Below the pieces are notes generated by a model. That model made no database searches. It had not been told where the DNA came from and saw nothing but the letters and a program-made list of their open reading frames with translations. This document shows, one piece after another, positions 11,286-44,246 of a DNA stretch of 64,000 nucleotides (the first letter of the stretch is position 1; each line of letters starts with the position of its first letter). Source of the stretch: Pseudogymnoascus verrucosus (taxonomy: Eukaryota). The stretch lies in assembly GCA_001662655.1 (NCBI GenBank), contig KV460253.1; one strand, 5' to 3'. Position numbers and translations under genes: made by a program.

Positions 11286-14200
11286 TTACCCCTTCCCCAC
11301 CAACCTCCCCCAAACATCCCCCCAATGCGTCCTCGCCCCTCTCAACAGCGCCCACGCCAACAACCGATACACCACCGTCGCAATCGCCACCCCCAGTAAC
11401 TCCAACCTCTCATTCCCATCCAATCGAAACAGCGCCAGCACCGCCTCTCCATCCGGGACGGTGCATGTACCATCTGGCAGCGCCTGTGCAGCCGTGCATG
11501 TCAGGGTGATGGGACGGAGGGTGTAGGGGGCGAGGTTGCGGATGACGTAGCGGAGGGGGGAGAGGTAGTTGACGCCGCGGAGGAAGGCGGGCATGGAGAT
11601 GGAGAGGATGCCGGACATGATGAGGGAGATGGAGAGGATGATGGAGGTGAGGTTTAGGGCGAAGCCGGAGTGCGAGAAGAAGGTGTTGAACTGAGAGTCG
11701 TATGTTAGCTTGGTGTAGTTGAGAGAAGTTCAGGGGAGAAATAAAAAATACTAAGGGGACAGGAGTGAGAGTGTCGGAGGAGGATAGAAACAACAGAACA
11801 AAAAAAGTGGAGCAGAACTCACCACAATCCCCAAACTCTCCCCACAAGTAACAATACAAAAGCAATTAAAAACCACCACCCAAAACACCGTTGCCGTCCT
11901 CGGCAACCCCCCCGCCAAATCCGCCAACACCGCAAAAATGATACACGTCACGATCCCAAACGGGATCTCCACCGTCGTATACTGCGCCAGGAACGCCTCA
12001 ACGCTATACACGCCATCATCATGCTCGCGGTAGAAGACTGCTTTTTCTGCAGGGTATACAGCGACGTTCTGGAGCATACCAACGAAGTACAGCGCGCAGA
12101 ATTCTTGGATAAAACCGACCCGGTTCTGGACGCTGAAGTAGTCGAATTTGAGAGGCGCAAAGAAGAGAGTGAAGATTATGGCTACCCCGACCACTTGCAT
12201 GATCCGCGCGATGAGCAACTCGGGCTGACGACGTAGGTTAACAAGTGACCGCCTCACAAGGAGCGGGTACGCTGTACGAAACGGCGCAGGAGCTCTCATC
12301 AACGCGCCCAGCTCCGCAGGCGTGGCAATCGCCCCTGGTGCCGCCACAACAGCAGGTTTCTCCCTCCCCCACGCAGCAATCAAGCCCACCACACGATCCC
12401 GGCTCGCAGCCTCCCTATCCGCAGCCTGTAAATCGACTGTAATAAGATCTAGCGCAAAATCCGCCGGGTTCGTACGCGCAGGACACGGATGTCCCAGCGC
12501 CGAAAAATGTGGAAGCATGCCGCTTCCCGGACCGGCATAGCAGGGCGCACCGCCGCGCGCGAGGAGGAGCACGGTCCCGAAGTGGGCGTAGAGATCTGAG
12601 CGGGCTTGGTGGATGGTGAGGATGAGTGTGCGTCCTTCATTCGCGAGGCCACGGAGGACATCCATGATGGATGCAGCTGTGAAAGCGTCGAGTCCCGATG
12701 TGGGTTCGTCGAGGAGGAGGACGCGCGGGTCAGTGAGGATCTGGACAGCGATTGTGACGCGGCGCTTTTCGCCGCCGCTGATGCCCTTGATCAGGTCGGA
12801 GCCGACGATGTTGTCAGCGCAGTCTTTGAGGCCCATTTTGAGGAGGATGGCTTCGGCGCGGTCGTGTTTTTCGGCGGTGGTCATGTGGGAGGGGAGACGG
12901 AGGACGGCGGCGTAGCGGAGGGTTTCGCGGACGGTGAGGGAGGGGAGGAGGGCATCGTCGTCTTGGCATACGTAGGAGCACACGCTGCGGATGACGGCGT
13001 TGGAGGGCACGGCTGCGTTGAAGGTCATGGTTCCGCTGCGGAGGTAGGTCGTGCCCATCCTGTCGAAGAGCCGGAGCGCCATGGCGTTGAGGAGGGAGGT
13101 CTTCCCGCTACCTGATGGGCCCATGATGACATTTAGCACGCCGGCCTTGAATGTTGCATCTACGGGATTCAGGATCGTCTTCCTTGGAAGCTTATTCCCC
13201 AGTGCAGTCCGCTTATCGAGGTCGAGAGCGAAGCCGGATAATCCAATTTCAATAGCGCGTACCTCCTCTGCTGAACGCACGCTCATTTTCTCTTTGCCGG
13301 ACGAGAAATCTGCATCCGAGTTGCGAGCGCGACCGATCGCCATCTCGACTGGTATGTAGCGTAGCCCGAGGCCCGCTAGGATATAGAATAGGATAGCAAA
13401 GCCAAGGAGTGCCAGTATGGGCGTCGAGACCCAGTCATGCGGGAAGCCGAGCGAGTCCATCACATACGCTCCTGTATACTGTTTACACTCCGGATTTGCC
13501 TCGCCGCCTTCGAGCGGGCAATCGTAAAAGTGCCCGACGAACTCGTTGGCACAGAGAGCACCAAAAGCGTAGAAGACGTAGCTTGCCCATTTTAGCCAGC
13601 GCACATAAACCGGGATGGTGTTACTCTGGATGAAAAACCCACAAGCAAGACTCTGGATAGTGTAGTTCAGGTTCCCGATCAGCGATGCGCCAGCAAAGCT
13701 ACGATCCGCGGAAATGCAGGCGGAGGCGAATGCGATGGCGATATAGTGGTTAAGTAGGACAATCGAGAAGAAAATGAAGAACTGTGCTGCCTCAGCGCGA
13801 AAGCCCGCCATAAAGTAGAAGATCACACTGAAGATAAATGGAACAGGAAGGTCCTCGATGAGGAAGCGCGCGAGACGCCGGCTCAGGAGGAATGGGATGA
13901 CGTCGACGACGCCCTCGCCGCGCTCGCGGTCGAAGAGCTCGATATCGATTGAGAGCCGGTATGTCTCGTACATGAGGATTAGGTAGCCTTGTAGTCCGGC
14001 TGCGGTATAGAGCGCGCCCTCGCGGGAGCGGATCCCTGGTTGGTCCTCGCCGAGGGAAAGGAAGATCCAGCCAGTGATGATACCCATGAGAACGGCTTCG
14101 ATGATGCAGCTCGCCATTCCCATCGGGTCGCGTAGGGTGACCTTCGTCGTGCGCGCAGTGAGAACGAATAATTGCCTGTAGAAAGCCGAGCGCCGACTAT

Positions 14201-15407
14201 CGCTGTTCCCTGGAGCAATAACAGCACCGCCAGAGCTATGTTCATCTCCCCATTTCCGTAGCGACTCCTGGTTCCAACCTTCCTTCAAATGACGCACCTT
14301 CTCCAACGACGCTTCCTCCAGCTCCGGAGACCGGTTATCAACAGCCGCAAGGTCAATGAGGAACTCGGCCGGATTGACAAATGGCGGTAGAGAGTATCCC
14401 TTCTCCTTAAAATACGGCAACGATCCATCTGCCGGCCCACTATACACCGGCGAGCCCTTCGTAAGGATAGCCAGATTATCAAACACCCCATAAATCTCTG
14501 ACCGCGGCTGATGAATCGTCATCACAATGGTACGCCCCTTAGCCGCCAGACCTCTTAGCGTGCGCACAAGCTGATAAGCGCTCGTCGCATCCAGCCCTGT
14601 CGTCGGCTCGTCCAGAAACATCACACTTGGGTTGCTTAGCAGCTGCACTCCAATGCTCGTGCGGCGCTTCTCCCCACCCGAGCAGCCCTTATGCACATGT
14701 GTCCCAATGCGCGTATCTGCGCACTCCTTCAGTCCCAGCTCAAGAATAACCTCCTCCACCACTCTCCGCCGTTCCTCTGCTGTCGTAGGTGGCGGTAGCC
14801 GTAGGTCAGCACTATACTGCAGTGTCTCTCGCACCGTGAGCGTTGGCAGCAGCACATCCTGCTGCATCACATACGCGCTCCTAACACCTCCCAGTAGTCC
14901 ACCATTAAACGTCGCCGAGCCGCGCGCGCGCAGCCTCCCCCCTCCGTCCCCCATCCGCCCCGACATCAGATTCAACATCGTCGTCTTCCCGCTCCCACTC
15001 CCCCCAATAATCGCCGTCAGCGTCCCCCGCTCCATATCCGCGCTGACATTGTCAAGGAGCGGGCGCCAGCGCGACTCCGCCGGGGCCTTGGGCCGGAAGA
15101 GGTTCGTGAGTCCATCGGCGCTGTGGAGGTTGCGCGGGTTGGTGTCGACGCTTACCCCGAGGGCGCGGACGCGGATATCGACAGGGACGACGGAGGAGAG
15201 CGAGAGCTGCGCGCTGTGGGAGGATTGGATGGGTTGGAGGGCGTTGGTGGGGAGGCTGGCGGGGTCGAGGCGCGAGGCTTCGTGGGAGGTGCTGCGGGAG
15301 GGGGACTCGAGGTTGGAGTCGAGGTCTTTCTCTTTTTCGGGGAGGAAGGCGGGGGGAGGGGTCGAGGTGTCGCCATGAGGCGGGGTGGGAGGGGAGTCTT
15401 TCTCCAT
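11286..15407 (-). CDS. Full-size ABCG-family transporter (NBD-TMD-NBD-TMD, YOL075c-like)
   Basis: Two Walker A motifs (GGSGSGKT, GPSGSGKT), two signatures (SGGEKRR) and two Walker B motifs (LDEPT). One intron 11822-11691 restores the frame to the stop at 11286. Confidence 0.95.
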
Positions 15408-16861
15408 TGTGGTGACGGGTAGGGCGGTGGCTCAATCCATAGCCGCGGAGGGTGATCGTAGACAGATATGCGTAATAGGAAGCGCAACGAGCCGTTCGAG
15501 GGCAGATACTCGCGATATCAACCGCAGCCTCGACTTCAGCTTCAGATAGACCAGTGACAACGACCAGCGTAGTAGCAATGGCCTGACACTTATATTTTGC
15601 AATGAAAGGAAAGAAAAATGAAGACAGACAACAAAACGAAATACGAGCTTCCACCCGCCTCTGAGCTATAATTTACCTCTAGCTCGAGGAGATCCCCTCA
15701 GCCGTCATCGACCCCATGCTCCACCGGCGCGATCGCTCCATGTCAATTTCGCACGATGCGACTACTGGCACGCTATAAACCTTGACATGCCACATGCACC
15801 CAGGCTAAACTATCGCCAGCTAAAGTAGAGCCAATACTCTAGCCGACATAGCGGAAGTCTAGACGGCGCCAGCTACAGTAGTGTGAGTACCCGTGGGATT
15901 TGCAAAGGTACTCGAATAACCCCCATTGCTGCTACCACAGGACAAGAGAGCGTCATTGCAGATAGCAAGGCGTGCAATAGGAAGGTCTATATCTGCGTCA
16001 ATTCTGCACTTGCCGATAATTATCAGTTGGGGGTTCAATAAGGCAAGGATACCGTATAGTAGAGTTAGAGTAACAGTACAGGCCCAAAAGTTCCTCTACC
16101 CCCCATCCACAATCCCTTCAGCATCTCCGCTTCCCCCACCTCGCTTAGAGCAAATAACCCCCATAGCTCCTTCTTCAATTGCCAATCCCACTAATACCCC
16201 CCGCCCATCGGTCCTTCCTTCCACTCACAGCAGCCAATATACGAGATTAGCACCTCGTTCCCTACCCACAGCACCCCTACTGCAGCATCACCCCGGGAAG
16301 CGATAATCCCGCTGCACCTCGCTTAGATTTAGATGACCACCAGCTTCGTACTCGGGAGGGTGATGTTATATGATGTGATGTTATGGGATGGGCGTCATGG
16401 GATGGACATGATGGGACGAGATGGATAGATGTGACGAGGCGCTCGGAACCGATGATTTCCGCTCGGTTGGGTGGAAGAGGGGAAGGAAGGGAAGGAAGAT
16501 GCATATGCATATGCAGTCTGCAAGCACACACCAACATCTCACGATCTGCGACGGAGGAGGAGGCTCGGTAAGACAACAATGTTGTCTGTTCGGCGATGTA
16601 TATAGTAGGGAGTACTCGACACGGACAGGAGAGAAGACGCAGGGACGACTCTGTGGAAGATTAGAAGATCTAGTCTAGACGGGCTCTGGGCCCGTTCCTG
16701 CCCCGCTGTCAACGGGCCTGTCTAGACCTGGTCTGCTTGGCAGCAACTGATTTTTTGACGTCGCGTCGCCGTTGCTGGGCGCTGCGCCGCAGAGATGGAT
16801 GTCTTCTCCCCTTTCCTCCCTCCGATTTGTTCTCCCAAATACCCATCGTGACGTCGTCAAA

Positions 16862-23643: not shown

Positions 23644-25764
23644 ATGAGGGGTCTTCTCTTCCTAACGCTCGCTGCTAATCTAGGCTCTGCCTTTGCTCAG
23701 GTTTGTCTCTCTCTCTTTCTGTCTCTATCTCTCTTCCCCGACGGAAAGCTTCTTTGGCGACGATTCTAACTGTTGTTGTAGGTTGTTGACTTGGGATTAG
23801 CGGCGTCGTATGGGGTTCTTGCTCATGCTTCAATCTCTAACTCCGGCCCTACGACTGTTAATGGAGATATTGGAACTACCGGCACATCTATAGTTGGATT
23901 TCCCCCGGGAGTCTACACTGGAAATAGAAACGTAGGCTTGCTAGCTACTACTGCTTTCAACAATGCTGAAGCCGCATACACAACCCTTGGCCAACTACCA
24001 GGCATTATTTTAGTTGGAAATCTAGGAGGAAGGCTTCTCCCGCCAGGAGTTTACAGGTTCCCTACAGCTGCAGTATTGTCCGGTACCTTGATTCTTGCAG
24101 GACAGGGTTCCCCTTGCGACTCATGGGTCTTTCTAATCGGCAGCACTCTGTCTACTTCGGTTGGATCATCTGTGATAGTAACGGGAGGAGGGAATCCCGG
24201 CAACGTCTTCTGGAGGGTTGGAGCATCGGCTACTATTCAAATTGGCAGCCAGTTTAGTGGAAATATACTTGCCGGAGTCGCTGTTACGTTGAATCCAGGA
24301 GCTTCCATTCAGGGGAGTGTATATGCTCTTGGTTCATCGGTTGTTTTGAACAGCAATGAGGTTGCAGCACAGGCAAACTCTTGTCCATTGGGTGCTTCAA
24401 CATCAACTTCTGTATCATCAACTTCTACAACCGCGTCCTCGGATTCTTCGACGAGCACTGATGTCTCAACAACCACGGACTCTTCAACCTCCACGACCAC
24501 GGATGTGACAACAACCACTTCGTCGGATTCTTCAACAAGCACTGATGTCTCAACCACTTCGACAAGCACTGATGTCCCGACAAACACTTCAACCAGCACT
24601 GATATCCCGACAACCACAGACTCTTCCACCTCCACGGATGTGACAACAACCACTTCGACAAGCACTGATGTTTCGACAACCGACGTTTCGACAACCACTG
24701 ATATCACAACAGCCACTTCGACAACCACTGATGTCACAACAGCCACTTCGACAACCACTGATGTCACAACAGCCACTTCAACAAGCACTGATATCCCAAC
24801 AGCCACGGATGTCACAACGGCCACGGATACCACAACAGCCACGGATATCACAACAGCCACTTCCACCTCTACGGATGTCACAACAACCACTTCGACAAGC
24901 ACTGATGTCCCAACTACCACAGACTCTTCATCGTCAAGCTCCTCAGTTACATCTGCGTTTGCGTCATTAACATCGACGTCTACGGCTTCATTACCTTCTT
25001 TGACTAGTTCCACAATAATTTCTGTAACAAATTCATCGGCTATATCTTCTCCACCAGCATCAACCACGTCGATAGTCTATGCAACAACCGTCTACACGAT
25101 CACGAAATGCCCAGCAACTGTCACCAACTGCCCTATTGGCTCTGCCACCACAGAGCTCATCAGTCTATACACGACTGTATGCCCCGTAGCCGCCTCGGCA
25201 ACAAAACAACCACCCTCCGGATATACCGTCTCAACCGTCTTCACTACTATCGTCTACACGATCACCAAGTGCCCTAAGACGGTCACAAACTGTCCTGTGG
25301 GATCCGTCACAACGGAGATCAGAAGCCTCTACACTACCACCTGCCCTGTCACACAATCTTTTGTGAACAGTGTGCTAACTCCTCAGTCTAGCATTCCTGC
25401 CCGTCCTGCTTCTTCCCAGCTTCCTGCTGCGGTATTGCCAAGTAGGATTTCTTCGATAGCTATTGCAAGCCCTGTCTCCACTGTGTCTCTAGCTTTGGGG
25501 CTCTCTGGTGCAGCCCCTGTCTCCTCTGTCTCTCCCGCCTCGGGGCCCTCTAGCGTCCAAGGCAGCGTCCTAGTGATTGGAGCACCACCATCATCGAATC
25601 TTGTGATCTCGACCGTCACGGCATCTAAGGGCACGGTTAACGTTTCTCAAACTTCTCAGCCTTCAGCTGCTTATACGGGGCCAATTTCTAGCAGTGGTGT
25701 AATGAATAAGGGTACTAGTGCAAGTTTGTTAGTTCTTGCGATTGGGGCTCTACTATTTTTGTAA
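23644..25764 (+). CDS. Secreted DUF3494 (IBP-1 fold) ice-binding-like protein with Ser/Thr stalk, two Cys cell-wall repeats and a GPI-type C-terminus
   Basis: Signal exon 23644-23700, intron 23701-23781, exon 2 in frame. Motifs VDLGxAxSYGVLA, GxTTVNGDIG, GFPPG, LGGxxLxPGVY, VFLIGSTL, NVFWRVGASAT, FSGNILA and VVLNSN. Also TTVYTITKCPxTVTNCP twice and a hydrophobic tail. Confidence 0.9.
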
Positions 25765-26000: not shown

Positions 26001-26400
26001 CGAAGCCAGGCAACCATCCCCCGTTTCTAGGAAGCCGCTGTCGTAATCGAAGACACAGGATGCGGCCTTTCTAAAGTCCTAAGGCAGACTTCAGAAATCG
26101 ACCAACCGTTTCGCGTTTCCCGGAAGCCACTGTCGTGATCGAATACACAGGATGCGGCCATTCGAGAGGCCCGAGGCGGATTTCGGAAATCGACCAACCG
26201 TTTCGCATTTTTAAACGCTCTTAGGCCGCTTTAATGGTCGCCACAAGTGGGGAAGTGTGGGCCTTGAGGCAGTCTAGGTAAAAGCAGCATTAGTCCTAGA
26301 GCGGGAACACGGAAGCGGAGGGCTGACAACGGGTGACGGTTTTGGTAGTGGTCTTGGCGCAAAAGTGATGGCAGCTCACAGAGAATTGGGCATCCTGTCC
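26001..26400 (+). repeat. Dispersed ~400-bp repeat, right copy, with an internal ~91-bp tandem duplication
   Basis: Matches 20151-20532. The block GGAAGCC...GATGCGGCC...AATCGACCAACCGTTTCGC occurs twice (~26030-26115 and ~26122-26206). Confidence 0.9.
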
Positions 26401-26557
26401 GCTCTGCCATACACAAGCTTGTGTATCCCTCTGGATAATAGCGTCATTTAGCCACACTCAAGCCACACACTATGTAGATGGCGTAGGGTACTAGGCGAGG
26501 CTATATTGCACTTTTCTATATTTTACTCTGATATATTGTAGTAGAATAAGGATCTAA

Positions 26558-28139
26558 CTATGCTTTTGCTGCACGAAGCTCGTCAAATCTCAAAACAGAA
26601 CCAAGTAATACCTGTGCTCCTGTGGCACATTCCTCTGGAGAACTATATTCTACAGGGTTATGGCTGATACCATCCTTGCAAGGAATGAATATCATAGCCG
26701 TGGGACATCTTTTCGAAGTATATACACTGATGTTGATTAGAAAAATGGTTGCGATGAGATTCCAAGCCCGGTGATAGAGTAGCATACCTGTCGTGACCAG
26801 CTCCGCTTATCATGCCCTCTTTCATAAAATCATCTGCCGCGATGCCAGCTTCCGTTGCAACAGCTTCTGCACTCTCGGAGATGCAACGGATACAATCCGC
26901 ATCGAAAGTGGTAGCTGTCGACGTAGAATCCAGCTGCCACTCAATCGAACACCCTCTGCCCTTAATACCCGCCCTGGTCGTCCCTGGTACAAGTTCATCC
27001 TTGGCAATAGTCTCAAAATCCTGCTTGAGCTTTTCCTCTAACAGCATTAGTTGAGAATCGGCGCCCGAGCGAATGTCGAGAGAGAATGTGACCTCTCCAG
27101 GTACGGTATTGGTGCTCCCAGGCTTGAGTGTGAGCACGCCCGTAGATGCCAACGACAAAAACTCACTTGCGAGTACGTGGGAATGAGAGATCATTCTCGC
27201 AGCCGTAAGCAAAGCATCTGAACGATGCGGGAAAGTGGTCGCTCCAGTATGGCACTCGCGGCCGCCGACGGTAATGGTATGCCAGCGATAAACTTGTGCG
27301 CCCTTGACAATGCCGATTCGTTTGTTCTCAGCCTCGAGGATCGGACCTTGTTCTTGATGGAAGTTAGCCTAACTCCATTCCACTCCTCAGATAAACCGAA
27401 TAAATAGTGGGATCATACCAATATGGAGCTCAAAATGCGCTGCTAAAGGCGTGCTCTCATAGCTTGCTGGTGTGTCGCCGAGGTACCCAATCCTCTGGAG
27501 TTCAGATTTCATAGTGGCATTACCCCCGCCGACTTCTTTGAGGTTATGCGCACGCTCAAGAGGAATTGAGCCAGCCCACACACCAGAAGACACCATTGAT
27601 GTCGGGAATCGGGCACCCTCTTCACTAAGTAATCGGTTAGTTTGATTTCTCGACGAGTAAGGCAACCTTACTTGGTCCAGTTGACAAGCCCAATAGGGAA
27701 TGCAGTGCTGACTTTGTTGTCCTCGAGAACTCTCAAGGCCTCCAACCCGGCCAACACTCCAAGTACACCATCGTAGCGGCCTCCGCTAGGCTGCGTATCC
27801 AGATGGCTACCCATGAATGTTGCCGGTCCTTCGTTGCGTCCAGCACGAATAGCAAAAATGTTGCCCATAGCGTCGATGTGTACCTTGCAACCCAGAGACT
27901 TTGTCTGCTTGACAAACCAATCTCGGACCAGCTTATCCTCTGAAGAGAGAGACAATCGTGACATTCCCGTGTCATTTACACCGCTGTCAATCTAGTAAGT
28001 AAAATAGTTATCTCTAATAAGGGCACCTTGCCTACCTTCCCCAAACTGCACCCTTACCCCACTGTGCAGTGTGGTGGATATCTTTCATGAGACGAGCTCC
28101 ATTGACCTTCAGATTTTTAAATGCAGCGTTCGCCATCAT
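26558..28139 (-). CDS. M20-family di-Zn amidohydrolase (beta-ureidopropionase / N-carbamoyl-amino-acid / allantoate amidohydrolase type), multi-exon
   Basis: Motifs GSHLDTQPSGGRYDG, EEGARF, HFELHI/EQGP, CHTGAT, NTVPG, SGAGHD and GISHNPVE. GT-AG introns link the ORF pieces. Confidence 0.92.
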
Positions 28140-28259
28140 TATTTTTGCTGAAAGATAAATCAGGTGACGAGTTTTAATGAAGTGTTGAAGGTAAACTGAC
28201 ACCGGATGAGGTTTTGACGAAGGCCAAGGTCGGCAGATCCCCGAGACTATATATGCAAC

Positions 28260-28655
28260 TGATCTCGTGATGTTGGGCGACCTATTTGAGGGGTAATTTT
28301 TGTAATCCGGTACCCACATTCACATTGGCTTTCTTTTAGCAAGATCGTAACCTAAATATTTATTTGTAACAAGTGATATCGTGATGTTGGGCGACGTACT
28401 AGAGGGGCAATTGTTTTTGATCTGGCGCCCAAATTCATATTGGCTTCCTTTTAGCAAATCGTCAGCTAAATACCTTTATGCAACAACTGATCTCGCGATG
28501 TTGGGCGACGTATTAGAGGGGTGATTTTTTTTAATCCGGCGCCCATATTCATTCATACTGGCACCTTTTAGCAAATAATAACCTAAATACTGTATGTAAC
28601 AAATGATATCGTGAAGTCGGGCGACGTACTGGGAATTTTTTTCCACTCCGGCGCC
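28260..28655. repeat. Tandem array of ~114-bp units (3.5 copies) in the divergent promoter
   Basis: Units start at 28260, 28374, 28488 and 28604 with TGAT(C/A)TCGTGATGTTGGGCGAC. Shared internal GGCGCCC, TTTTAGCAA and CTAAATA. Confidence 0.92.
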
Positions 28656-28770
28656 CTTATTTGTATGATTCTCTTCCCGTGTTATGAATCATTCCGCATC
28701 CCTCGCTGTTTTCCATATCTCACTCTTCTGCGTCTGCCATCATTTTTCAATAACGCCTTGTGCCAACGAA

Positions 28771-29913
28771 ATGTTTGTCAATTCCGAAGCTCGGGCATGG
28801 ACATGCTCTTCTGCAATTGATGCTAAAATTGATACATTTCACTGCAACCTACCAGGGTATTCACAGACTCCACTTCTTGACTGTAGCTCAATTTCAGCAG
28901 AGTTGAGCCTGAAGAACGTCTTTCTCAAAGATGAATCAGCCCGTATGGGCCTTCCAGCATTCAAAATCCTGGGCGCATCGTGGGCAACATACAAGGCCAT
29001 TACAAAGCTGCTTCAGCTTCCGACAACGGTCAATGTCCAGACGGTCATCAAGGGTATTGCTGAGAAACATCAAGGCTTGACCCTCTTCGCAGCAACCGAG
29101 GGAAATCATGGTCGAGCAGTGGCTAAAATGGCAACGCTGCTGGGAATAGCATCGCAGATCTTTGTTCCCCAGTATCTGAACAAATCGACGCGCGATTTGA
29201 TTGAGAAGGAGGGGGCATGCGTAGTGGAAGTTCTAGGAGACTATAATGAGGCTGTTGTCAGGGCAAAAGACACAGCACATGAGCTTGGAATTGATGGCTT
29301 GTTGATCCAGGATACTGCATTTGACGGCTATGAAGATATTTCGCAGGTACAGTGCTCTCTGACCCTTCTCAAGCCAAAGCCAACTAAAATTTCCCAGTGG
29401 ATCGTAGACGGTTATTCAACAATGATGAAGGAAGCCGACTCACAGATCTATAATATCACACAAACTCGACCAGATGTTATCGTGGTGCCTGTTGGTGTCG
29501 GTTCTCTAGCTCAGTCGGTCGTCACCCACTACAAGTCCCAAGGCCATCCTTGCACCATTATAGCAGTTGAGCCAGAACCAGCAAATTGTCTACAGATGAG
29601 CCTGAAGTCTGACACGTTAACCTCGGTCTCGACTGAAGATACGATCATGTGTGGTCTGAACTGTGGCACTGTGTCTTCAATCGCTTGGCCTATCCTTCAG
29701 AAAGGGGTTGACGTGAGCGTTTACGTCACAGATGCTGAAGCTCATGAGTCTCTTGTCCAGCTCAAAGAATGTCAAGCAGTGATTGGGCCATGTGCAGCAG
29801 CTACTTTGGCAGCATTGAAGAAAGTAGTCAGAGGGCCTGGATTGGACAAAAACGCCGTCGTATTGCTTCTTGGTACAGAGGGTATACGAGATTACGAAGT
29901 TCCAACTTACTGA
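28771..29913 (+). CDS. Diaminopropionate ammonia-lyase-like PLP enzyme (fold type II, DpaL/YgeX family)
   Basis: Motifs KDESARMGLPAFKILGASW (PLP lysine), ATEGNHGRAVA, IQDTAFDGYE, VDGYSTM, VPVGVGSLA and TIMCGLNCG. Probable in-frame 51-nt intron 29347-29397. Confidence 0.88.
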   Translation: MFVNSEARAWTCSSAIDAKIDTFHCNLPGYSQTPLLDCSSISAELSLKNVFLKDESARMGLPAFKILGASWATYKAITKLLQLPTTVNVQTVIKGIAEKHQGLTLFAATEGNHGRAVAKMATLLGIASQIFVPQYLNKSTRDLIEKEGACVVEVLGDYNEAVVRAKDTAHELGIDGLLIQDTAFDGYEDISQVQCSLTLLKPKPTKISQWIVDGYSTMMKEADSQIYNITQTRPDVIVVPVGVGSLAQSVVTHYKSQGHPCTIIAVEPEPANCLQMSLKSDTLTSVSTEDTIMCGLNCGTVSSIAWPILQKGVDVSVYVTDAEAHESLVQLKECQAVIGPCAAATLAALKKVVRGPGLDKNAVVLLLGTEGIRDYEVPTY

Positions 29914-30508
29914 GAATATTTACATCAAATGGTTGATTACTACTCAAACTTCTCTCTCCTCATCTGCCGAGGATTTACATGCCAGAAATTCTGGAGGTGA
30001 TGGCAGGATTGAAAGTGCGGGGCTTATATGAATATCAAGATAATGTATTTCGATCCATGATATACAACCGCTACATAAATAGACTCTCGTATTAAGAAAG
30101 CCAGTTTAATATCAATACGTCATCGAAACCTTGTATGTCTGCAGAAAAACTATAATATAACTGTGTTTGTTACTATAATAGACATGGGGTCGTGCTGTAC
30201 CACCTTTCAGATCAGCTTTATGCACGAATGTGCCCATGTCCAGCCTGAGGCATAAACGGATCAGTCACACAAGCAGTCACGAAGTCATCAAACAAGAATA
30301 ATAGCTGAAAATCAGTTCCGCTCGCTCGCTCGCTCATTGTATTCATCCACACCCCTCGCTATCTCATTTCATCATACAATCCCACAATCCCACTATCCCT
30401 CATCCCCGCCGTGAGGCATCTCTCATCTCCTCTCCCCTTATCGCCATTTTTATATCCCCCACGCCCCCAACCCCCCCTCCCGCCTTCCCAGCCCCCGTCC
30501 GTCCCTAG

Positions 30509-31241: not shown

Positions 31242-33336
31242 TCACGTAGCCAAAAAGTCCATCCCCATATCACTCGCAATCCCCTGCCAATCCCAACTCC
31301 TCTCATCCCTCTTATCCATATACCTCCACACCTCCTCCAGCACCTCCAGCGCACGATCCGCATTCCGCAACGTCGTATACGCCCTAATCCTTCTAATACT
31401 CTCCCTAATCGGTATCCTCTGCTCCGGCTCAAACGCCGCACACCCAATAATAAACGTCGGCGTCAGCACCACAGTCTGGCACGGGTCGTTCGCAGGGATC
31501 AACTTCAGCAGTTCCAGCGCACCGTTAACAGCGGACGTGATTTTGGTATCGGGCGCCCAGCGCGTTGCCTTGGGAGGGTAGATGCTGCGCCACAGGTACA
31601 CCCAGAGCATCTGCTTATATAACAGACCTGCGACATGGCGGACCTCGCCGACGGGCCATGCGGACTGCCAAGCGCGGATGGAGGCGTCGATCTGGGAGGC
31701 GCGGTAGAGGGCGTTGTAGTCGACGATAGGGTCGATGTCGGATTCGATGTTGATGCGGATTTTGTTACGGAGGCGGGTGATGGAGGACATGAAGTAGAAG
31801 AGGTTATCCTGGACGCCCATGAGGCACTCTGCTTCGGGCTGGAAGAGAGCGGGCGGGAGGGACAAAGAGGAGTCGTCGTCGGGGGCTGGGGAGGATGTGG
31901 AGGAGAGTGGTGGGGAGGCGGGCCGGTGGACTAGCTCGTCGACCGAGATGTGGAATTGGAAGTACTCCTTGATGAAATCCATGAAGGGGGAGTCTTCAGG
32001 GGGCGTCTCGCGGATGAGCTTCTGGTAGGCTTGGAGGTGCACGCGATGCTCTCCTGTCGTCTTGCCCTCTGTTAGACTCTTGACGACGAAGCAGAGCATT
32101 TGACCGTAGCGCACGGAGAGCACGACGTTCTCTGTCGTGCCGGAGTTCTGCCGCTCGATGTCGAGGACGAACTCCTTGACTGCCTCTTCCTGGTGGAATA
32201 GCGCGCGCTCGCACAGGCTATTCTCCGTGACGTCCGGGTGCTTGGCTAGGATCGCGCGCCCGTATTCGCTTTGGTAGTCGAGGTTGCTACTTGACAGCGC
32301 TAGGATCGAGTGCATTAGACCGAGGTGCTTGACGGCCATCGGAAGTAGCATATCCTTGAAGGCATTCTTCTGCGGGCCCTCGACCGTCAGTACTGCGCTC
32401 AGCCTGAACACGTAGTGCTCAAAGAAGATGCGGTCGCCGGCTGTGTCGACTCCGTGGATCACGGGTTGGAGTTGGATGTTGGGGATGCACACGCGACTGA
32501 GTTGCGCGGTTGATTGGGCGAGCATGGAGGTCGAGATATCCTTTGACCAGACCGCCGTGCCCTCTTCTGCCTTCTCCTTGCCGGACTTCCAGATGGCCCG
32601 CTCTGGGTAACCTTCGCACACCACGGCGTTCTTCTCGCAGTTATTACCTATAAGGTGTTAGTCACGCTCAAAAACTTAAGTTGCTAGCAGAGCCACAGCG
32701 ACAATCAGGGGACAGCATACATCTTGGCTTCGCCTCGTCACACTTCTTCTTCCGTTTCCGACACGTAATACACCCCGTCTTCGACCTCCCTTTCGTAATC
32801 TTATTGAGCGACTCTGGCACAACGGGATGTTTCCGCGGCCTACCTCTCGGCCTCTTCGCTGCCACCGGTGACATCAATTCCATCGACCGCCGATGACTCT
32901 CAATTAGCGCTAACGCCGCGTCGTCCCCTGGCGACTCGACCTTCGGCTCAATTAACTCGTCAAACTCCTCCTCGGGTATAGCATGTCCACACGCATCGAC
33001 CTTCCTCTTCACCCCCCTCTGCTCCTCCCACGAGCCCGACGGCGTCGGCGTCGCAGAACCTCCATCCTCCTCCTGCCTATTATCCACCACCCTCTCCACC
33101 GTCCCCGCACTCGTCGTAATAACCCCCGCCTTCACCATCCCCAGCATCCTCTTCCTCTGGCCTATCGTCCTTTGAATCCGCGAAATATGCGCCAGATCTT
33201 TCCTATCGCCTACCCGCCGTATCTCTCCCCTCTGTAGCACCTGCCCCGAAGCCCCCTCGTCGTCCGCCACCTCAAGCGGCCCTGCGTGCTCGAATGTCCC
33301 GCTATTGATGTGCGCGTACCGGGCGCGTGCGTCCAT
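31242..33336 (-). CDS. Zn(II)2Cys6 transcription factor with AT-hook and Fungal_trans_2-type C-terminal domain
   Basis: AT-hook KRPRGRPRK, then CITCRKRKKKCDEAKPRC/(intron)/NCEKNAVVCEGY. The C-terminal domain ends in WDWQ...MDFLAT. Confidence 0.92.
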
Positions 33337-36300
33337 GCTCCGCTTCTCTTCGTCCCCGTTGCGCGGCCGAGGGTTAGGGGCGCGGGGTCGTAGGCATCGG
33401 GGGGTGGTGAGTGAGGGCGGCTTTGGTGGTCGGGAGAGCTGGAGCGCGGGAACTCGGTATGGAGTTGAGCTGGTTGGGTGGTGGTGGTGGTGGTGGTGGT
33501 GCAGCTCCGAAGTCGCGGCGGTATTGGTTGGCTCGGTTTGGTCGGGGAAGGCGGTCCAGCGTCCTACTCGCTCGTAGCTATCTGTTCTGTACTCTCTTCA
33601 CTCTACTCTTCGATATCGCGGTCCGGGAAGAAACAACAACGGCACAACTTCAACACAACACAACGTCAACACACAAACGTTAACAGCGGCGGTAGTACAC
33701 GTAGTTTGAGGAAGCTTCGATCCATAAGAGATTCGAGCGGAGGAGCGAGCGAGTGGAGATAGATAGCGTAATATCTAGCTCCTTGGGGGGGTGTGAGTGT
33801 GAGTACGGTACTTTCGCTTTTCGTTTCCGGTTCAAAGTACGGGCGTAGCAGGGGTTTGGGGGATGGGAAAGGGCATGGGAAGGGAAGGGATTGAGTACAT
33901 CAATGATCAATTGTCTACAGCTGCAAGGATGCGTGCGGATTGTTCGCTTGTGGGCTGGATGTGGGTTGTTGTGGGCTGCCTGAGAATAATTTGCAGGGGT
34001 TGGCATTTTAGTAGAGTACTAGGAGCTACTAGGAGTTACTAGGAGTACCCTCGACGAAGGGATGGGATGTGGGCGTTATCTGGAACGAAGTGGATGCGAA
34101 TAGATGGCCTTTCGCCGTCTGACAATGACAAAGTACTGACCAAGTATTTATGGGATTATATGTAGTTGGGATAGTAGGGAATTAGAGGTTTAGGGGATTA
34201 GAAAACTATCAGGGCATTAGGGGGTTAGGGACCCCGAGCGAGGGATTCAGGAGGGAGGGAGACGTACGTACGTGGAAAGTGAGGAAGTGAGGACGGAAGG
34301 ACTAGCGTATTGGGGGAGCAAGGGACGGGCTGCTCGACAGTAGAACAGACGTTATGTAAGAGTATATGCCATTCACTCTATACTGCCTATTTCGTGTGGT
34401 GTCAGTTCACCCGTGGCCGTGGTAAAGTACTCCCCTAGCACAGTCCAGCAGTATAAACCGAACCCCAAGTCGCTTGTCTCTCCGTCCGGGTCGCTGCAGA
34501 ATCCGTGCAGTGAGAAGCGTGTATTGTAGCGCACTTTTCTCATCTCTTGATCCCCTATATTCGCTGAGCCTTGTTGGTTAAGATTACGTGGGACGAAATG
34601 GCACCGCGGGCAGAGGGAGCGGGAGGGCAGGAGCATTATGCGGTTGATGCAGGCCCGTTGCGCATAAGACACATGTGAGAATATACATCTGTGAGACAGG
34701 CGTTGCGAGTGGGGAGGATGGGGGGATGGGGGGGATAGAGAGAGTGGAAGTGAAAAGACAGCGGGTAGGATGGGATGGGGCAAGGAGAGTGGCACCATTA
34801 GCAACTAGCAACTAGGGAGGGAAGCTTCGACTGTGCTGTGCATCACCGATGGTACTATAACCATACCAGACTATACTACTGTATGATATACCAATCTATA
34901 CTGCTACTGTATACTATGCTCTATACTACCCAGTTCGGTATACGTGGACTCCATCCCCCAAGAGACGCCGAGGCATGGTTAGTAAAGTAATCAAACAAAA
35001 TCCAGACCCACGAGTCAGTTAGTCTAAGAATGTCGCAATCCCCCCAAACCAGAGCCATCCTTTCCCTACTCGTACATAACTTTACAGTAATGGTACTGTA
35101 CAAATACTATACATACGTACATACTTGCGCACTCATCCCTCATCCCTCTCATCCCTCCAGCACGACGCGCATTCACAGTCGCCCATCGCTCCTCCCTCAG
35201 CGCCGATCTCACCAACGCCCCCGCGCGCCATGTCTCACTCCACCCTCCACTTCACCACAATATCGATATCTCGTCGTTGGAGAAAACCCATCCCCTCATA
35301 TCCAGCTGAGCCAGTCCCATACATACCATGCCATTCTCTACTGTACGCTGCAAATGTCCCCCATCCACACTACAAACACCACAAAAACCCTCCAAGCCGC
35401 CCAGCCCCACCACCCAATCTCACAAACACTTCTCTCCGACCAGTCCAACCCGCTGTCCCGCCCAGACCCACTAAATCCCCTTCCTCCCCTTCCCTCCCTT
35501 CCCCAATCGCACTTCTATCAAATATCCATAGCTTTCGTCTCCACCGCGCCCCGTCCCTCCAGCCGCGAATAGTGTCGGATATTCCCCGGTGCGGACTGGA
35601 CCGCAACACAGACTATCAATCGTCATCATCATCATCAGCACCAGCGGCCAGGCCGTCGCCAAACGGGGTAATCATCGTCCTAGAATGGATGATGGCTTGA
35701 GAAAGGGCCTTGTTTTTGGGGGCTGGGCGCCCAGACTGCGCCCAGAGCGTGGGCCATCGAGTCGCTGGAACGGGCGAAGTGCATGGGATAATCCAGGCGG
35801 GTACTTTGTTGGGGAGAGGGGGAGGGGCATTGGATGGACGACTGGGATGGGTGAGGTTTGGTTTGGAGAGCAAGGACGGCAGAGTAGTGTACAAAGAGCG
35901 GGTGGTGGGTGGAGCCATGGCACTCTCCGTACTCTCCTTCAAGATAAAAATCCAGCCTATCTTCCCCCTCACTAACCACGCAAACGCCATCAACGCCTCA
36001 TAAACCCCAACTAGCAATTCACGTACCCTCCCCCCCCCTTCCCATAACTCCCGTATCTCCCACCCCCGGTCCATCACCTCGCCGCCCGCCCTCACAGCAC
36101 TGTCACATCGCCCAGCCACGAAACGCATCCACGCCACCACTTGCCGATCGTTAATCGGCTGGACCAGACCAGCCGAGAGCGCTCGCCGGATGCGCGATGC
36201 AGGAATGAGAAAAGGGAGTTATGCTTAGTGTCGGCATTGATGTGTGAGCTGGTGATAAGAGGGATGAGGGCGAGACGGCCAGACAGGCAGACATGCGGCT

Positions 36301-38855: not shown

Positions 38856-40783
38856 CTACGAACTCCCCATTCTCGTAGCCACAAAGTCAACCAAATCAAA
38901 GAAACTCTTCTTAAACCTGCGTTCCTGACTCGTCCTATTCACATACTGAAGACCAAACTGTTGCGTATAATCTCCAAACTCCCAGTTGTCAGCGAAACTC
39001 CACGCAAGCGCGCCCATGACATTGACACCATCCTCATGTATGCTCTTCAAGATCTCACTCATGAAACTGAGGTAGTACTGGCTCCTTGGAGAATCGAAGA
39101 GTTGGTCCTCCACAGCAGCACTCTCAGATTCCGCGAAGACGGGGAAGCCGAATTCGGAAACAAGGACGGGTTTCTTAAAGGTATTGTAGAGGTAGGATAG
39201 GTATGTGCGAAGGTACGTCGGCGTAATGTAGACGTATGATTGTGAGCGGTACCCGATGTTCCAACCAAAGACGTTTTGCGTTTCTTGCGTCACGCAGTAG
39301 GGGAAGTTGGGAGAGCTGGAGTTTTTGGCACAGGCTTCCACGCCCTCCGGTGGCTGGCTGACAACAGTTGCAGTGTAAGGATCAATACCGAGAAAATCGC
39401 TGGTGTTTCCAACGTACGCCAGATCTTCGGGGGTGAGAGGGACATAATCTGGAATGGTGATTTTGAATGCTTCGGGGTAGTCGATACCAAGGAAGATTGG
39501 ATTACAGAACGTTGCAAGCTGGAAATCGTTGAAGTGATTTGTGGCATCTAAATCGGATTGGTTCTTAGGGTCTTTAGGGACGCCGAAGTTGTCGTTGAAT
39601 TTGATGCCGAGCTTTCCGGTGCCCTGGACGTCTTCGTGATAGAAGTGATAGAGCTGTGCGTGGGCTTTAATGACGTTGTTTACTGATTTTCCATTATCGC
39701 AGTAGAGAAGCGGTTCGTTGAATCTATTGTCTTTGTTAGGCAGCATCAGAGGATATTGTGTGGAGGGGAGACTTACGTAAACCAGATTGGGACTCGGTCT
39801 GCATAATTTGTCAAGAGTATTTTGCCATAATTAACAAAGGCATCGGTGAATGTCTCGTTTTGATATCCCCCATTTACATATCCAATCAACGCATCATCCG
39901 CGGCCTGGCTATTATTACCCCCAAAGAATTGGAGAGGGGTGTCAAAATGGAACATTGTGACTGTTGGAATCATCCCTTTTTCAAGGATAAAATCGATTAG
40001 ATCACTGTAATGATCCAATCCTTGTTGATTGACGGGAGTTCCAGGAAGAGCGAATGGAAGAATTCGAGTCCACGCAATGGAAAAGCTGTAGTACTTCACA
40101 CCCATGGAAGCAAGCCTCTCGATATCTTGCTTGTAGAGATAATAGTTCTCATTTGTAACGTAGTCCTTTGATTTCCCTTGTGCTCCTGGGAGGATCTCCA
40201 TCAGACTTGGGGACTTGCCTTCCATCGCAACGGCACCTTCGATTTGCGATGCTGAGCCTGCCACTCCGAAGATAAAATCTTCTGGGAAAGTATAGCAGTC
40301 TGTTGGGCCAAAATAATCGGCTGGGGGAAGAATTAATTCGCTGGTTGGTAGGGCTGTCGGACTGACGGTTGTGGTGTAAAGTGGAACCTCGGTGAAGTTA
40401 GACACATTGGCTGCATGCCACATAGCAGTCCATGCTGCGTTTCCGTATGGGTTCGCAGAGTCGGTTGCCTGAGCCGTTGCATTCGGATCCCAGTTGCCCC
40501 ATGTTGTTGTAGAAATATCAGGAACAAGGGTGCTTAAGTCTGAGAAGTGGGGGGCATAGGAGGCAGTCGTTGAAGGGACGGGCCTTGATGTTGCCGTCCG
40601 ATAGGTTTCAGTTTGAGTAAAGGAGAATTGAGTGAAATGGTATGTAGGAGTGGTAGTGTAATTGCAAGATTCGCAATTTGGTCGATGTGAGGGACCATCT
40701 GCAGATATGTACACCTGTTGACCTAACGTGCTCGAGGCACTAAAGGCTAGAAGAACACCGAGCTTCTGCCCTATGGATATCAT
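38856..40783 (-). CDS. Secreted glycoside hydrolase family 1 (beta-glucosidase-like) with Thr-rich N-terminal extension
   Basis: Signal peptide. Motifs FGVAGSASQIEG, YSFSIAWTRI, HFDTP, FNEP (acid/base), VSEFG (nucleophile) and DNWEF. One intron near 39.75 kb. Confidence 0.93.
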
Positions 40784-41620
40784 GTTGAGGATATGAGAAA
40801 ACAAGGGAAATAAAAGATGAGGCCATTATTGCAAGAAGAAAATTGCCTAGCCTTTTTATACTCGTGGAGAGCATGCCTCATGACAACGGCACTCTAGGCT
40901 GAACGCATTGCCGTCTCATATTCTCCCATCTGCCAGCCCTTTCAAGCTGTTTGGAAGGCCCGATTATGCGGAGCAGGAAGCAAGAATGGGGAACCCCGAA
41001 TTCTGTAAAAAGGTGCGGTAAATGCAGATCTTCGTCATCGAACTAGTTCGAGTAGCCAAAGAAGGTTACATTCCGTGATTATCATAAAAAAAATCGCTTT
41101 TACCCCGCAAACCAGAAGACTGAGCCTGCGGGGTACGGAGCCCCATTCGATATTTATTGATGTGGGATAAATGTGACGATGGCGGGGCCGAGGTAACCCC
41201 GTATAAAGACGATATTCCCGGACGATCACTTTAAGCTTCTGGCATCCAGAAACTGAGCATAAAGAAACTACTCCATGACGCTTAAAGAGTTGTATCGCAT
41301 TTCGAACTATCTCGAGGCATAAATGTGCGTGTGCGACGATTAAGTCGGGGTGCGGGAGTGTTCTAAGGTAGGCAGGTGAGCCCCGTAAAACTGCGGCGAA
41401 AGATGCCCTTGTCACGAGCCTCTTAGACTTATATCAATGGGGAAAGGAATATTTGCAGAAGTTATAAAATGTCAGTTTGCATGGTATGCCATGCAAAATT
41501 AGGCGATGCAGATAATGAAGACTAAATTAGTTTATTTATCATATTAGATTTTATATGTGAGTACTAGTCGGGGATTCTCGAGTAGTACTTACAACTGTAA
41601 GAGGACAATGCTGCAGCCAT

Positions 41621-43368
41621 CTAGTAAACATATCTGAAATTGGGATTCTCCTTGTCAGTTAAATTCTCCCAGAGAATCTTCTCATTTCCCGCGGACAAAG
41701 AAAGACCCTCTTCAACGGCTTGACGCTTGTCCTTCTGCTTGTTAGCCCAGACGTAGTATCCGAACAAAACAATAGCAACGACAGCTCCGCCAGCTTGTGT
41801 AGCCATAACAGCAATCTTAGCTGGGTAATAGCGAGGAGCATCTCTAGCCTGGAAAGTTTGCGGGCCGATAATGTTGCCAATGGAGAAACTTCCCGCGATA
41901 AGAGCAGCTGCAACGCTTCTCTTCGTATGCCCACTAACGTTTGCCATAGTCCACTGGTAGATGACTGTTAATGTACCCGTGATGGCGTTGACAAGGTAGA
42001 TGCCCGCGAGAAGCCCCGCACGATTACTAGCTGGCATAAAGGACATCAGACCGCCACCAATCATGCCTGGAATACAGCAGAGGACTAGCCATGCCCAGCG
42101 GCTTTCAGATTTGCGGACACCGAATCCAACTATCAAAGCTGCTGCGATGGAAACGAGACCGCTTGGCATGTTCAAGAGAGCTGTGCGCTTGGGGGTGAAA
42201 CCAAAGCTTTGGATGAGTGTTGCAGAATAAGTTGTGATGACGCCACTTGAAACGGAGATCTATAAGGCGCGTGAGCTGAATTTGCACATAAACACGGATG
42301 TTGGTGTACTTACGCAGATGGTGCAAATAGTGAGTAGCCAAAGTTGGGGATCTGCCAAAACTTCTAAAGCTTGTCTCATCTTGAAATTCTTGTTTTGAAT
42401 TCCAGTTTGGTTGATACTAACATGCTTGAGAAGAGCAGCCTTCTCCGGCTCACTGAGCCATTTCGCTTTCATCGGCGAGTCTGGTAGGATGAAGAATGTA
42501 GCTATTCCAACCAAGGAAGTGGCAATACCAACGAAGACAAACATTGCTTGCCATGACTTAAAATGCTTGTTCGTGACATGCTGGAACGCGAAGGATATAA
42601 GGCCTCCAATGATCTGCCCGAATCCAAGACCAGAATACCAGATAGCAAATCTAGGGGCTTGCTCGGACTTGGTATAGTACTGACTGCTTATCAGCATTAG
42701 GCACGGGGCGATAGCAGCCTCAAACATTCCGAGGAAGATACGGGCGGCGAGAAGAGAGTGATAGTTGGTTGCTCCTGCGGACGCTGCACAACTGATCCCC
42801 CAGAGACACACGTTAATGCCCAGCCATTTTCCAGGAGGAAATTTCTGGAGGATATATCCTGCAACATATGTGTAAGAACTTTATTTGCTGCATTTGAGGG
42901 GGCAGACTCACCGGTAGGGACCTCTGCGATGAGGTAGGCGATGAAGAACGCGGATCCGACGTTGGTGAAATTGTTCTTGGTCAAGGCTAAATCCTTGTTG
43001 ATTCCCATAACGGCGGCATACTATGAAGCGACATTGTTAGAAACATAACAGAGAGGGTAAGAGAAGGGTTGGGAGTTTCAACTTACATTTATGACGACTT
43101 TATCGACGAATTGCAAGACATAGCAAACGAACATAATTGGCACGATGCGCCAATCGATCTTTCGTCGCAAGGCAACTAGATCGATGCTTGTGGACTCAGC
43201 ATTGGCATGGTCGTGTAGATACTTGAAGGCATCGTCTAAATCATCTTCGTGCTCTGCGCGGACAGTGGGGGATGCCGGTGAGGTCGTATCTGTCTCGGAA
43301 CCAGCCATGGCCTTTTCGTTTCCGGCTTTCATTTTCTCATTACCAGCAGCATCAGAGGCGTTGGTCAT
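41621..43368 (-). CDS. MFS transporter, allantoate permease (Dal5)/anion:cation symporter family
   Basis: Motifs RRKIDWRIVP, ARIFLGMFEA, YYTKSEQAPR, LPDSPMKAKWL, NVSGHTKR, GNIIGPQTF and LTDKENPNFRY. Three introns. Confidence 0.93.
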
Positions 43369-44246
43369 TGTGTAAGGGGTGCAGAATCGTGCCCCGTATA
43401 GCTCGACAGAAGAGTTGGCGATCAGCAACGAAGAAGAAGAGCTGGAGACCAACGACAAAGAGAACAACAAAATAGTCTCCTAGACAGATAAATAAAATAC
43501 CGACCCCGTCAGGTATAGCCAGCTAACACCACTGTCTTAACTACTACCCCTCCCCTAGTATGAATGTAACGATCCACTGTTTTTACTGTCTCACCGCACC
43601 TAAATTAGGCGGAACGGCATTTAGTTTTGGTGAGCTATCTTGCCAAGATCTGCCAATACTACAGCAGATCGTTACGACTATACTGGGGGGTAATAATGCG
43701 GTAGTTAATCTCAAGACCACTGAGGTATAGTTTCGTGTGCGGGTCTGCGAGATCGAGCCAAAATGGGCGGAGATATAGCTTATGTACATCGCGGCACCTA
43801 ATCGTCCCGCCTCGTTCCAGAAGCTTTTATAAACCTCATGAGTTGCATGGTCGAATACGCAAAATGGTCAATCAGTGTCTCGGGAGACCTCATGGATCCT
43901 CAATTCAATGTTAGTAGTATTCTGCAGCACTACAGGGCCAATTTCCCCTTAATTTTAACCCCCTTCCCAGTTGGGACACACGAAATCCCAGTTCAGATCC
44001 TACGCAGCTCCTTGGCCTGAGCACGCCAAAACAATTGTACCGGATATAGTGTCCTCTGCTTTTTATGGGGCTTATGGCCGGGCGATCGCTGTTGTCATTC
44101 GGTAGATTAGAACCCCTGTTGACACCTGTTTTCGGCATCTTGCACAGAAACCTTAGGGTCGGAAACATATTCAAGCGTCATTCAAAGAGACAGTTCTATA
44201 TACATTACGGCAGAATTAACTCTGAAATGTTTGCAGCTACATTAAA

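Follow-up and report, generated by a model that had tools for sequence, protein, structure and literature searches.

The window analyzed here, a 64,000-nucleotide stretch of contig KV460253.1 of the fungus Pseudogymnoascus verrucosus (assembly GCA_001662655.1), carries at positions 26558..29913 a head-to-head pair of genes for a predicted M20-family amidohydrolase and a predicted pyridoxal phosphate (PLP)-dependent lyase of the diaminopropionate ammonia-lyase (DAPAL) family. Sequence comparison suggests, tentatively and with slightly less than an even chance, that the pair constitutes a two-step catabolic module, in which a ureido derivative of 2,3-diaminopropionate (DAP) would be converted to DAP and the latter to pyruvate. 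It would probably represent a small nitrogen-scavenging pathway, resembling the final steps of bacterial uric-acid breakdown. The module is partly supported by comparison, through apparently intact catalytic residues in both proteins, their restricted co-distribution and the recurrent coupling of M20 and DAPAL enzymes elsewhere.

In the proposed mechanism, the M20 protein would act as a di-zinc N-carbamoyl amidohydrolase of the beta-alanine-synthase type, hydrolyzing the ureido group of a mono-ureido DAP and thereby releasing DAP, CO2 and NH3. Its substrate would most likely be albizziin (3-ureido-2-aminopropionate, or alpha-amino-N-carbamoyl-beta-alanine), with the 2-ureido isomer as a further possibility. 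The PLP lyase would then eliminate both amino groups of DAP to yield pyruvate and two NH3. Both genes would be transcribed from a shared divergent promoter, and would presumably be co-regulated and functionally coupled in this fungus.

The M20 gene (26558..28139, minus strand) runs from an ATG at 28139 to a stop codon at 26560-26558 and comprises five exons (28139-28036, 27983-27672, 27624-27419, 27352-26788 and 26726-26558), separated by four introns of 52, 47, 66 and 61 nt, all of which have GT..AG borders. The spliced coding sequence of 1356 nt is translated without an internal stop into 451 amino acids. This exon model is corroborated by the annotated orthologue from Bisporella sp. PMI_857 (P0130), which is also 451 residues long and agrees with the window protein from end to end at 84.0% identity. 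Four of the five exons separately match TIGR01879, the hydantoinase/carbamoylase-family amidase model (106.8, 84.9, 56.2 and 20.2 bits). The window protein was scored exon by exon, and the full-length score was taken from the 84% identical P0130, which at 334.3 bits exceeds the curated cut-off of 204. The best matches of P0130 and of the window exons all belong to TIGR01879 and to related models of the allantoate-amidohydrolase type, and the YgeY-family models (TIGR03526 and NF009555) are not among them.

The solved structure closest to P0130 is the beta-alanine synthase of Saccharomyces (Lachancea) kluyveri (1R3N, E 1e-112), with which all 12 positions compared are conserved (H114, D125, E159, E160, H226, Q229, H262, N309, R322, G396, H397 and H421). 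These positions are what we take to be the di-zinc ligands, the catalytic Glu and the residues that bind the ureido and carboxylate groups, so that the hydrolase resembles PYD3 of this yeast (PDB 1R3N, 2V8H) in the alignment of its metal-binding, catalytic and substrate-binding positions. The spliced window protein carries the motifs GSHLDT, YDG, NEEG, HIEQG, CHTG, STNT, DIRS, GAGHD and ISHN, and as judged from these alignments it keeps its catalytic residues.

The lyase gene (28771..29913, plus strand) has two exons that encode 363 amino acids, with an ATG at 28771, a stop codon at 29911-29913 and a single in-frame intron of 51 nt at 29347-29397. Its spliced product equals in length the annotated P. 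verrucosus protein VE01_08690 (P0007, 363 residues); the read-through translation (P0001) is 96% identical to the latter, the sole difference being the 17 residues encoded by the intron. PF00291, the fold-type II PLP domain, is matched at 167.6 bits, and the next family class, the serine/threonine dehydratases, reaches at most 86 bits with the read-through translation. The closest solved structures are the DAPALs of Salmonella and E. coli (5YGR and 4D9G). The PLP-lysine motif AFKILGASW, equivalent to K77 of the E. coli enzyme, is invariant in the alignment of homologues and aligns with 5YGR. The equivalent of D189 (QDT) and both cysteines of the ANCL/NCG motifs are retained as well, and the equivalent of D120 is a Glu within AATEGNHG (the GNHGR motif); in the E. 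coli enzyme, D120 and D189 are acidic active-site residues and the two cysteines line the entrance of the active site. By these comparisons the lyase appears to keep its catalytic residues. The possibility that the Glu at the D120 position signals a changed specificity of the clade was considered and rejected: across 120 fungal homologues this position is occupied by D in 61, by E in 40 and by A in one (the motif was not found in 18), and the 40 Glu cases among the 102 motif-bearing proteins are spread over clades.

The profile matches (TIGR01879 for the hydrolase, NF006058 and PF00291 for the lyase) bear out the preliminary description of this locus, which had called a ureido-type M20 enzyme and a DAPAL. 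Its layout also stands, as the ends it gave coincide with the two stop codons and the start codons, estimated at about 630 bp from each other, lie 632 bp apart.

The pairing of these two enzymes is unlikely to reflect chance, since DAPAL genes repeatedly adjoin, or are fused to, genes for M20 hydrolases. In E. coli and Clostridium, according to PMC12507026 and bioRxiv 10.1101/2025.04.24.650524, the adjacent M20 and DAPAL-family genes encode YgeY, which removes the last ureido group, and YgeX, which converts DAP to pyruvate and ammonia; the window lyase belongs to the family of YgeX. Recombinant YgeY and YgeX together convert albizziin to pyruvate at the end of the reductive uric-acid pathway, as reported in PMC12507026, and to that extent the background on albizziin offered in the preliminary description is correct. 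A second group (bioRxiv 10.1101/2025.04.24.650524) assigns to YgeY the 2-ureido isomer instead of albizziin. The window pair differs from YgeY-YgeX in several respects. Its M20 protein is a member of the TIGR01879 subfamily rather than of the YgeY/ArgE-DapE type, and the genes are fungal, divergent and intron-bearing rather than arranged in an operon. The surroundings differ as well: none of the reductive urate genes XdhD, YgfK/UacX, SsnA, HyuA, YgeW/UacY and YqeA was found in the open reading frames (ORFs) scanned with Pfam across window positions 8-48 kb, namely selected ORFs of at least 130 amino acids over that interval and of at least 70 amino acids in 18-23.8 kb and 29.9-38.9 kb.

Bacteria also provide examples of the same subfamily combination as in the window. 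A search of metagenomes with P0007 alone retrieved no relative; a search with the alignment of orthologues yielded a sample of 80 DAPAL loci (37-45% identity), apparently mostly bacterial to judge from their intron-less matches, and none of them belongs to the orthologue clade of the window lyase. By local tblastn, 13 of the 80 loci exhibit a match to an ArgE-type M20 protein, directly upstream of the DAPAL in 12, and six have a TIGR01879-type M20 within 6 kb of the DAPAL. At locus L056, the TIGR01879 protein (386 bits; cut-off 204) stops 8 bp ahead of the DAPAL, within an operon (2241-16306) that places flavoprotein and molybdopterin subunits of xanthine dehydrogenase (XDH) before the two genes and a PnrA-like ATP-binding cassette (ABC) importer after them. 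Loci L040 (1-14800) and L071 (1-13223) each combine a DAPAL and a TIGR01879 M20 protein (435 and 392 bits, respectively) with an F420 luciferase-family reductase, a CN_hydrolase and a protein resembling selenium-dependent XDH (Se-XDH; 791 bits in L040, where the cut-off is 830). An SsnA-like hydrolase is additionally encoded in L040, and in L071 there is a D-hydantoinase (483 bits; cut-off 393). In L061 the DAPAL is followed directly by a TIGR01879 M20 gene, and L016 also combines the two.

By gene content, L040, L056 and L071 look like variant reductive uric-acid clusters with the TIGR01879 M20 protein in the decarbamoylase position; this enzyme and the CN_hydrolase appear to take the places that YgeY and YgeW occupy in E. 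coli. The gene set of L040 and L071 matches the Chloroflexota-type urate cluster noted in PMC12507026, which mentions pathway variants with a luciferase-family F420 enzyme in place of YgfK. The window pair thus shares its two enzyme subfamilies with L040, L056, L071, L061 and L016, yet these bacterial clusters are operons which also comprise XDH, the F420 luciferase-family reductase, an SsnA-like hydrolase or hydantoinase, CN_hydrolase and importers. Their M20 proteins are 34-37% and their DAPALs 39-44% identical to the fungal ones and both fall outside the fungal clades, which argues that the fungal pair was assembled independently.

A second form of coupling is found within the fungi themselves. 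In a sample of 20 fungal DAPAL representatives longer than 500 amino acids, half (10 of 20) are fusions of a PALP domain with a C-terminal Peptidase_M20 domain (P0260, P0261, P0264, P0267, P0268, P0276, P0281, P0282, P0288 and P0315), and P0096 is a further case. The M20 halves are of the ArgE/DapE type; in two of the four scanned, TIGR01910 was matched at 239 and 218 bits, above the cut-off of 217.6. Fusions are annotated in Mycena, Rhodofomes, Sarocladium, Fusarium verticillioides, Drechmeria and two Aspergillus species, so that their hosts span Basidiomycota, Sordariomycetes and Aspergillus. They look like a eukaryotic, fused counterpart of YgeX-YgeY, and no description of a fungal DAPAL-M20 fusion was found in the literature searched. 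The window pair is like these proteins (e.g., P0264 of Mycena floridula, P0486 of Sarocladium strictum and P0282 of Drechmeria coniospora) in coupling a fungal DAPAL to an M20 hydrolase. It is unlike them in that the fusions use a TIGR01910 M20, lie fused or in tandem on one strand and are widespread in Dikarya, whereas the window pair uses TIGR01879, is divergent and is confined to a few Leotiomycetes. As judged from these sequences, the coupling of an M20 hydrolase to a DAPAL is a recurrent design, of which the window pair employs a different M20 subfamily. Other partners of the DAPAL domain were also observed, i.e., an ornithine-cyclodeaminase/mu-crystallin domain (P0361), a CitMHS transporter (P0290) and an ASCH domain (P0322).

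The phylogenetic trees place both window proteins in long-stemmed clades within fungal families. The fungal DAPAL family forms one clade (support 98), in which subclade A holds most of the sampled fused forms together with the second Pseudogymnoascus paralogues, and its sister, subclade B, includes the clade of the window lyase (support 100, stem of 0.47 changes per site). Two fused proteins (P0260 and P0315) lie at the base of the family, outside subclade A, so that in the sampled tree the fusions occupy subclade A or the family base and the window lyase subclade B. The clade of the window M20 protein (support 100, stem of 0.5 changes per site) is nested in the beta-alanine-synthase-like family of Pezizomycotina, separate from the Leotiomycete housekeeping clade, which includes the second Bisporella copy (P0180). 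Transfer of a bacterial M20-DAPAL operon was considered as an origin of the pair and rejected, as both proteins nest within fungal families.

The window hydrolase does not behave as the PYD3 orthologue, being neither single-copy nor part of the housekeeping clade. It is a separate, long-stem paralogue, partnered with a DAP lyase instead of with pyrimidine-catabolic genes. The question raised in the preliminary description, of whether a separate housekeeping-type beta-alanine synthase exists, can be answered in the affirmative: Bisporella sp. PMI_857 codes for P0180 in addition to P0130, and a further PYD3-type paralogue (P0187) is present in Pseudogymnoascus sp. 05NY08. Because of P0180 and P0187 the window M20 is not the sole gene of PYD3 type, and the existence of such paralogues leaves this copy free for another role.

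On the basis of the matches found, both window genes are lineage-restricted paralogues of Pseudogymnoascus and a few other Leotiomycetes (Bisporella and Cudoniella). Orthologues of the lyase, 71-90% identical to it, were identified in no fewer than ten genomes (P. verrucosus, Pseudogymnoascus sp. 24MN13, VKM F-4519, 23342-1-I1, VKM F-4281, VKM F-4515, P. australis, WSF 3629, P. destructans with VC83_07160, and Cudoniella acicularis), and the matches that follow fall to about 50%. Fragments of orthologues also lie on JGI contigs of 9.6-11.6 kb. Annotated orthologues of the M20 protein are known from four genomes only (03VT05, 24MN13, WSF 3629 and Bisporella), the following matches being at most 64% identical. 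The window M20 gene, though intact, is absent from the public protein collection, and the Pseudogymnoascus orthologue models P0127, P0128 and P0129 either are truncated or fail to remove the last intron. A missing annotation therefore does not show a missing gene, and the M20 gene is probably under-annotated across Pseudogymnoascus. The genomes with a single partner may reflect either annotation failure or real loss.

The linkage of the two genes is conserved within narrow limits. Locus tags place them side by side in strain 24MN13 (VE04_09400/09401, on a 3.9-kb contig) and in WSF 3629 (VE00_00038/00037), in addition to the window; conservation of the linkage, on which the preliminary description had made its proposal depend, is documented for these genomes, all of them Pseudogymnoascus.

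Several of the observations weigh against a ureido-DAP module. The available evidence does not separate albizziin from its 2-ureido isomer, from N-carbamoyl-beta-alanine or from some other compound, and no characterized fungal member of either family was found in the literature searched. The lyase protein (P0007) narrowly misses the cut-off of the DAPAL equivalog NF006058 (271.7 bits against 276), which is passed by a second Pseudogymnoascus paralogue (P0037, 301 bits) as well as by a Geoglossum protein (P0015, 298 bits); TIGR01747 is also matched below its threshold (209 bits against 274). Distribution adds further difficulties: only two of the lyase-orthologue genomes, which number at least ten, have an annotated M20 orthologue (24MN13 and WSF 3629), those of 03VT05 and Bisporella reside in genomes without a listed DAPAL orthologue, and the protein collection lists no lyase orthologue for Bisporella and no M20 orthologue for Cudoniella. 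Adjacency is documented in three genomes, all from the same genus, in which synteny would be expected through common descent. In the ORFs scanned across 8-48 kb, no gene for producing a ureido-DAP was found, neither a dihydropyrimidinase/hydantoinase nor XDH, and no obvious amino-acid transporter; no RNA data were found for 26400-30100. Finally, the M20 clade exhibits only three clade-specific changes (S49, V280 and D326) at conserved positions, defined as those kept in at least 85% of 162 other fungal M20 homologues. With almost no such change there is no sign of a new specificity, and a remodeled active site was rejected as an explanation, none of the three changes falling in the catalytic motifs.

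The two-step albizziin pathway put forward in the preliminary description is thus upheld in part. Its biochemical logic is consistent with the YgeY/YgeX precedent, the bacterial loci, the fusions and the PYD3 paralogue; nothing singles out albizziin itself, and no publication that treats albizziin together with beta-alanine synthase, beta-ureidopropionase or carbamoylase was found in the literature searched.

An explanation that retains the coupling of the two enzymes and changes their substrate is improbable, though it deserves attention. The hydrolase might then act on N-carbamoyl- or N-acyl-serine, on another beta-substituted alanine or on N-acyl-DAP from a plant or bacterial conjugate, and the PLP enzyme could be a serine-type or other beta-eliminating lyase. 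The E. coli DAPAL has weak activity on D-serine, and some L-carbamoylases accept N-formyl and N-acetyl amino acids. The recurrence of the M20-DAPAL association shows coupling and not which compound is used, and even for YgeY PMC12507026 and bioRxiv 10.1101/2025.04.24.650524 disagree on the ureido isomer. The sub-threshold equivalog score of the lyase points in the same direction, as do its five clade-specific residues (C38, K75, N255, A325 and L348), of which N255 is the residue also found in the Salmonella DAPAL. Against a change of substrate, DAPAL is by far the best family match of the lyase, which keeps the K77 and D189 equivalents and the cysteine pair. The hydrolase, moreover, retains every ureido- and carboxylate-binding residue of beta-alanine synthase, and where bacteria combine these two subfamilies the clusters are of the purine type, which should yield ureido-DAP.

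An absence of any functional coupling is an equally doubtful alternative. The M20 protein would here be an extra beta-alanine synthase or N-carbamoyl-amino-acid hydrolase and the lyase an independent enzyme, the two being neighbors by descent in a young genus. Divergent gene pairs are common in fungal genomes, the active site of the hydrolase is indistinguishable from that of the general fungal family, and conserved adjacency is documented only within Pseudogymnoascus, with one partner each listed for Bisporella and Cudoniella. The closest homologues of the two genes carry locus tags that are not adjacent in Pycnora, Umbilicaria and Elasticomyces. Set against this are the independent linkage or fusion of the two families, many times over, in bacteria and fungi, the fact that the two window genes are alike in being paralogues on long stems, restricted to this lineage and matching in distribution, and the availability of other PYD3-type copies for the housekeeping role. 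It is very unlikely that the pair and the neighboring Zn2Cys6 factor form part of a cluster for secondary metabolism or detoxification, tailoring or degrading a DAP-containing natural product: a Zn2Cys6/Fungal_trans_2 gene adjoins the lyase, and an ABC-G transporter, a major facilitator superfamily (MFS) transporter, a family 1 glycoside hydrolase (GH1) and a flavin adenine dinucleotide (FAD) monooxygenase lie within 20 kb, yet no polyketide synthase, nonribosomal peptide synthetase, terpene synthase or other core biosynthetic enzyme was found among the ORFs scanned in 8-48 kb, the DAPAL reaction is degradative, and the other genes are 9 to 15 kb off with unrelated genes between.

If the ureido-DAP module holds, it would extend the route from ureido-DAP to pyruvate to the fungi. 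To our knowledge, it was only in 2025 that DAPAL was assigned a physiological role, namely in gut bacteria, where it completes the anaerobic degradation of urate, and no eukaryotic role was described in the literature searched. Nor did that literature contain a description of a comparable fungal module, in agreement with the preliminary description, which knew of none. The window pair would represent a eukaryotic version of the YgeY/YgeX scheme whose hydrolase derives from a duplicated beta-alanine synthase, a proposal partly supported by the present comparisons, and would provide a clear case of a paralogue of PYD3, an enzyme of pyrimidine catabolism, recruited beside a new partner. A testable function would also be suggested for many fungal proteins annotated as "tryptophan synthase beta-like" or "acetylornithine deacetylase".

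A broader extension, which must be regarded as rather less likely still, is that fungi hold two independently assembled lower-pathway modules that supply a DAPAL-family lyase with DAP, and that together they would enable fungi such as Pseudogymnoascus to exploit albizziin and the 2-ureido isomer as sources of nitrogen and carbon. One would be the widespread fusion of DAPAL with an ArgE/DapE M20 enzyme, of the YgeX/YgeY type, and the other the Leotiomycete-restricted pair derived from a duplicated beta-alanine synthase; the same chemistry would then have been assembled at least twice in fungi with two M20 subfamilies. Albizziin is a non-protein amino acid of legumes, the ureido-DAPs are terminal intermediates of bacterial reductive urate degradation, and Pseudogymnoascus inhabits cave sediment and guano-rich soil. 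Through such modules, fungi would scavenge a product of purine breakdown across kingdoms, by means of a pathway not known from eukaryotes.

The two start codons are separated by a divergent intergenic region of 631 bp (28140..28770), which presumably serves as a shared bidirectional promoter. Most of it is filled by a tandem array (28256..28661) of a 114-bp unit, in about 3.3 to 4 copies of approximately 80% identity. Tandem Repeats Finder delimits the array to 28256-28630 (period 114, 3.3 copies, score 438), and the direct-repeat families D1 and D3, with four copies each, extend it to 28661. Each unit holds the conserved cores TGTTGGGCGACGTA and TCCGGCGCCC. The 26-nt repeat core has four matches in the window, all of them in this array, where none would be expected. 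The array could consist of factor-binding sites or be a decayed mobile element, and a regulatory role for the repeats is speculation.

Convergent with the lyase gene is a gene for a transcription factor of the Zn(2)Cys6/Fungal_trans_2 type (31242..33597, minus strand), recognized by a match to Fungal_trans_2 (PF11951, 162 bits) on the ORF at 31242-32657 and by a weak match to Zn_clus (E 0.004) on that at 32671-33597. It is a possible regulator of the pathway, and its membership in the module is uncertain. The scanned interval of 8-48 kb further includes genes for an ABC-G transporter, a DUF7735 protein, a C2H2 zinc finger, an ice-binding-like protein, GH1, an MFS transporter and an FAD monooxygenase. 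The ice-binding-like ORF (23782-25764, plus strand, 660 codons) begins with an N-terminal domain of that type (PF11999, 142 bits); long repeats rich in Ser, Thr and Asp come next, and the C-terminus is hydrophobic. These sequence features suggest that the product is probably a wall-anchored ice-binding protein of a cold-adapted fungus. Farther downstream, at 38856-45408, a GH1 glycosidase (38856-40825, minus strand, in two ORF pieces), the MFS transporter (41621-42880, minus strand) and a fragment of the FAD-binding monooxygenase (44226-45408, plus strand) may form a small cluster for glycoside utilization.

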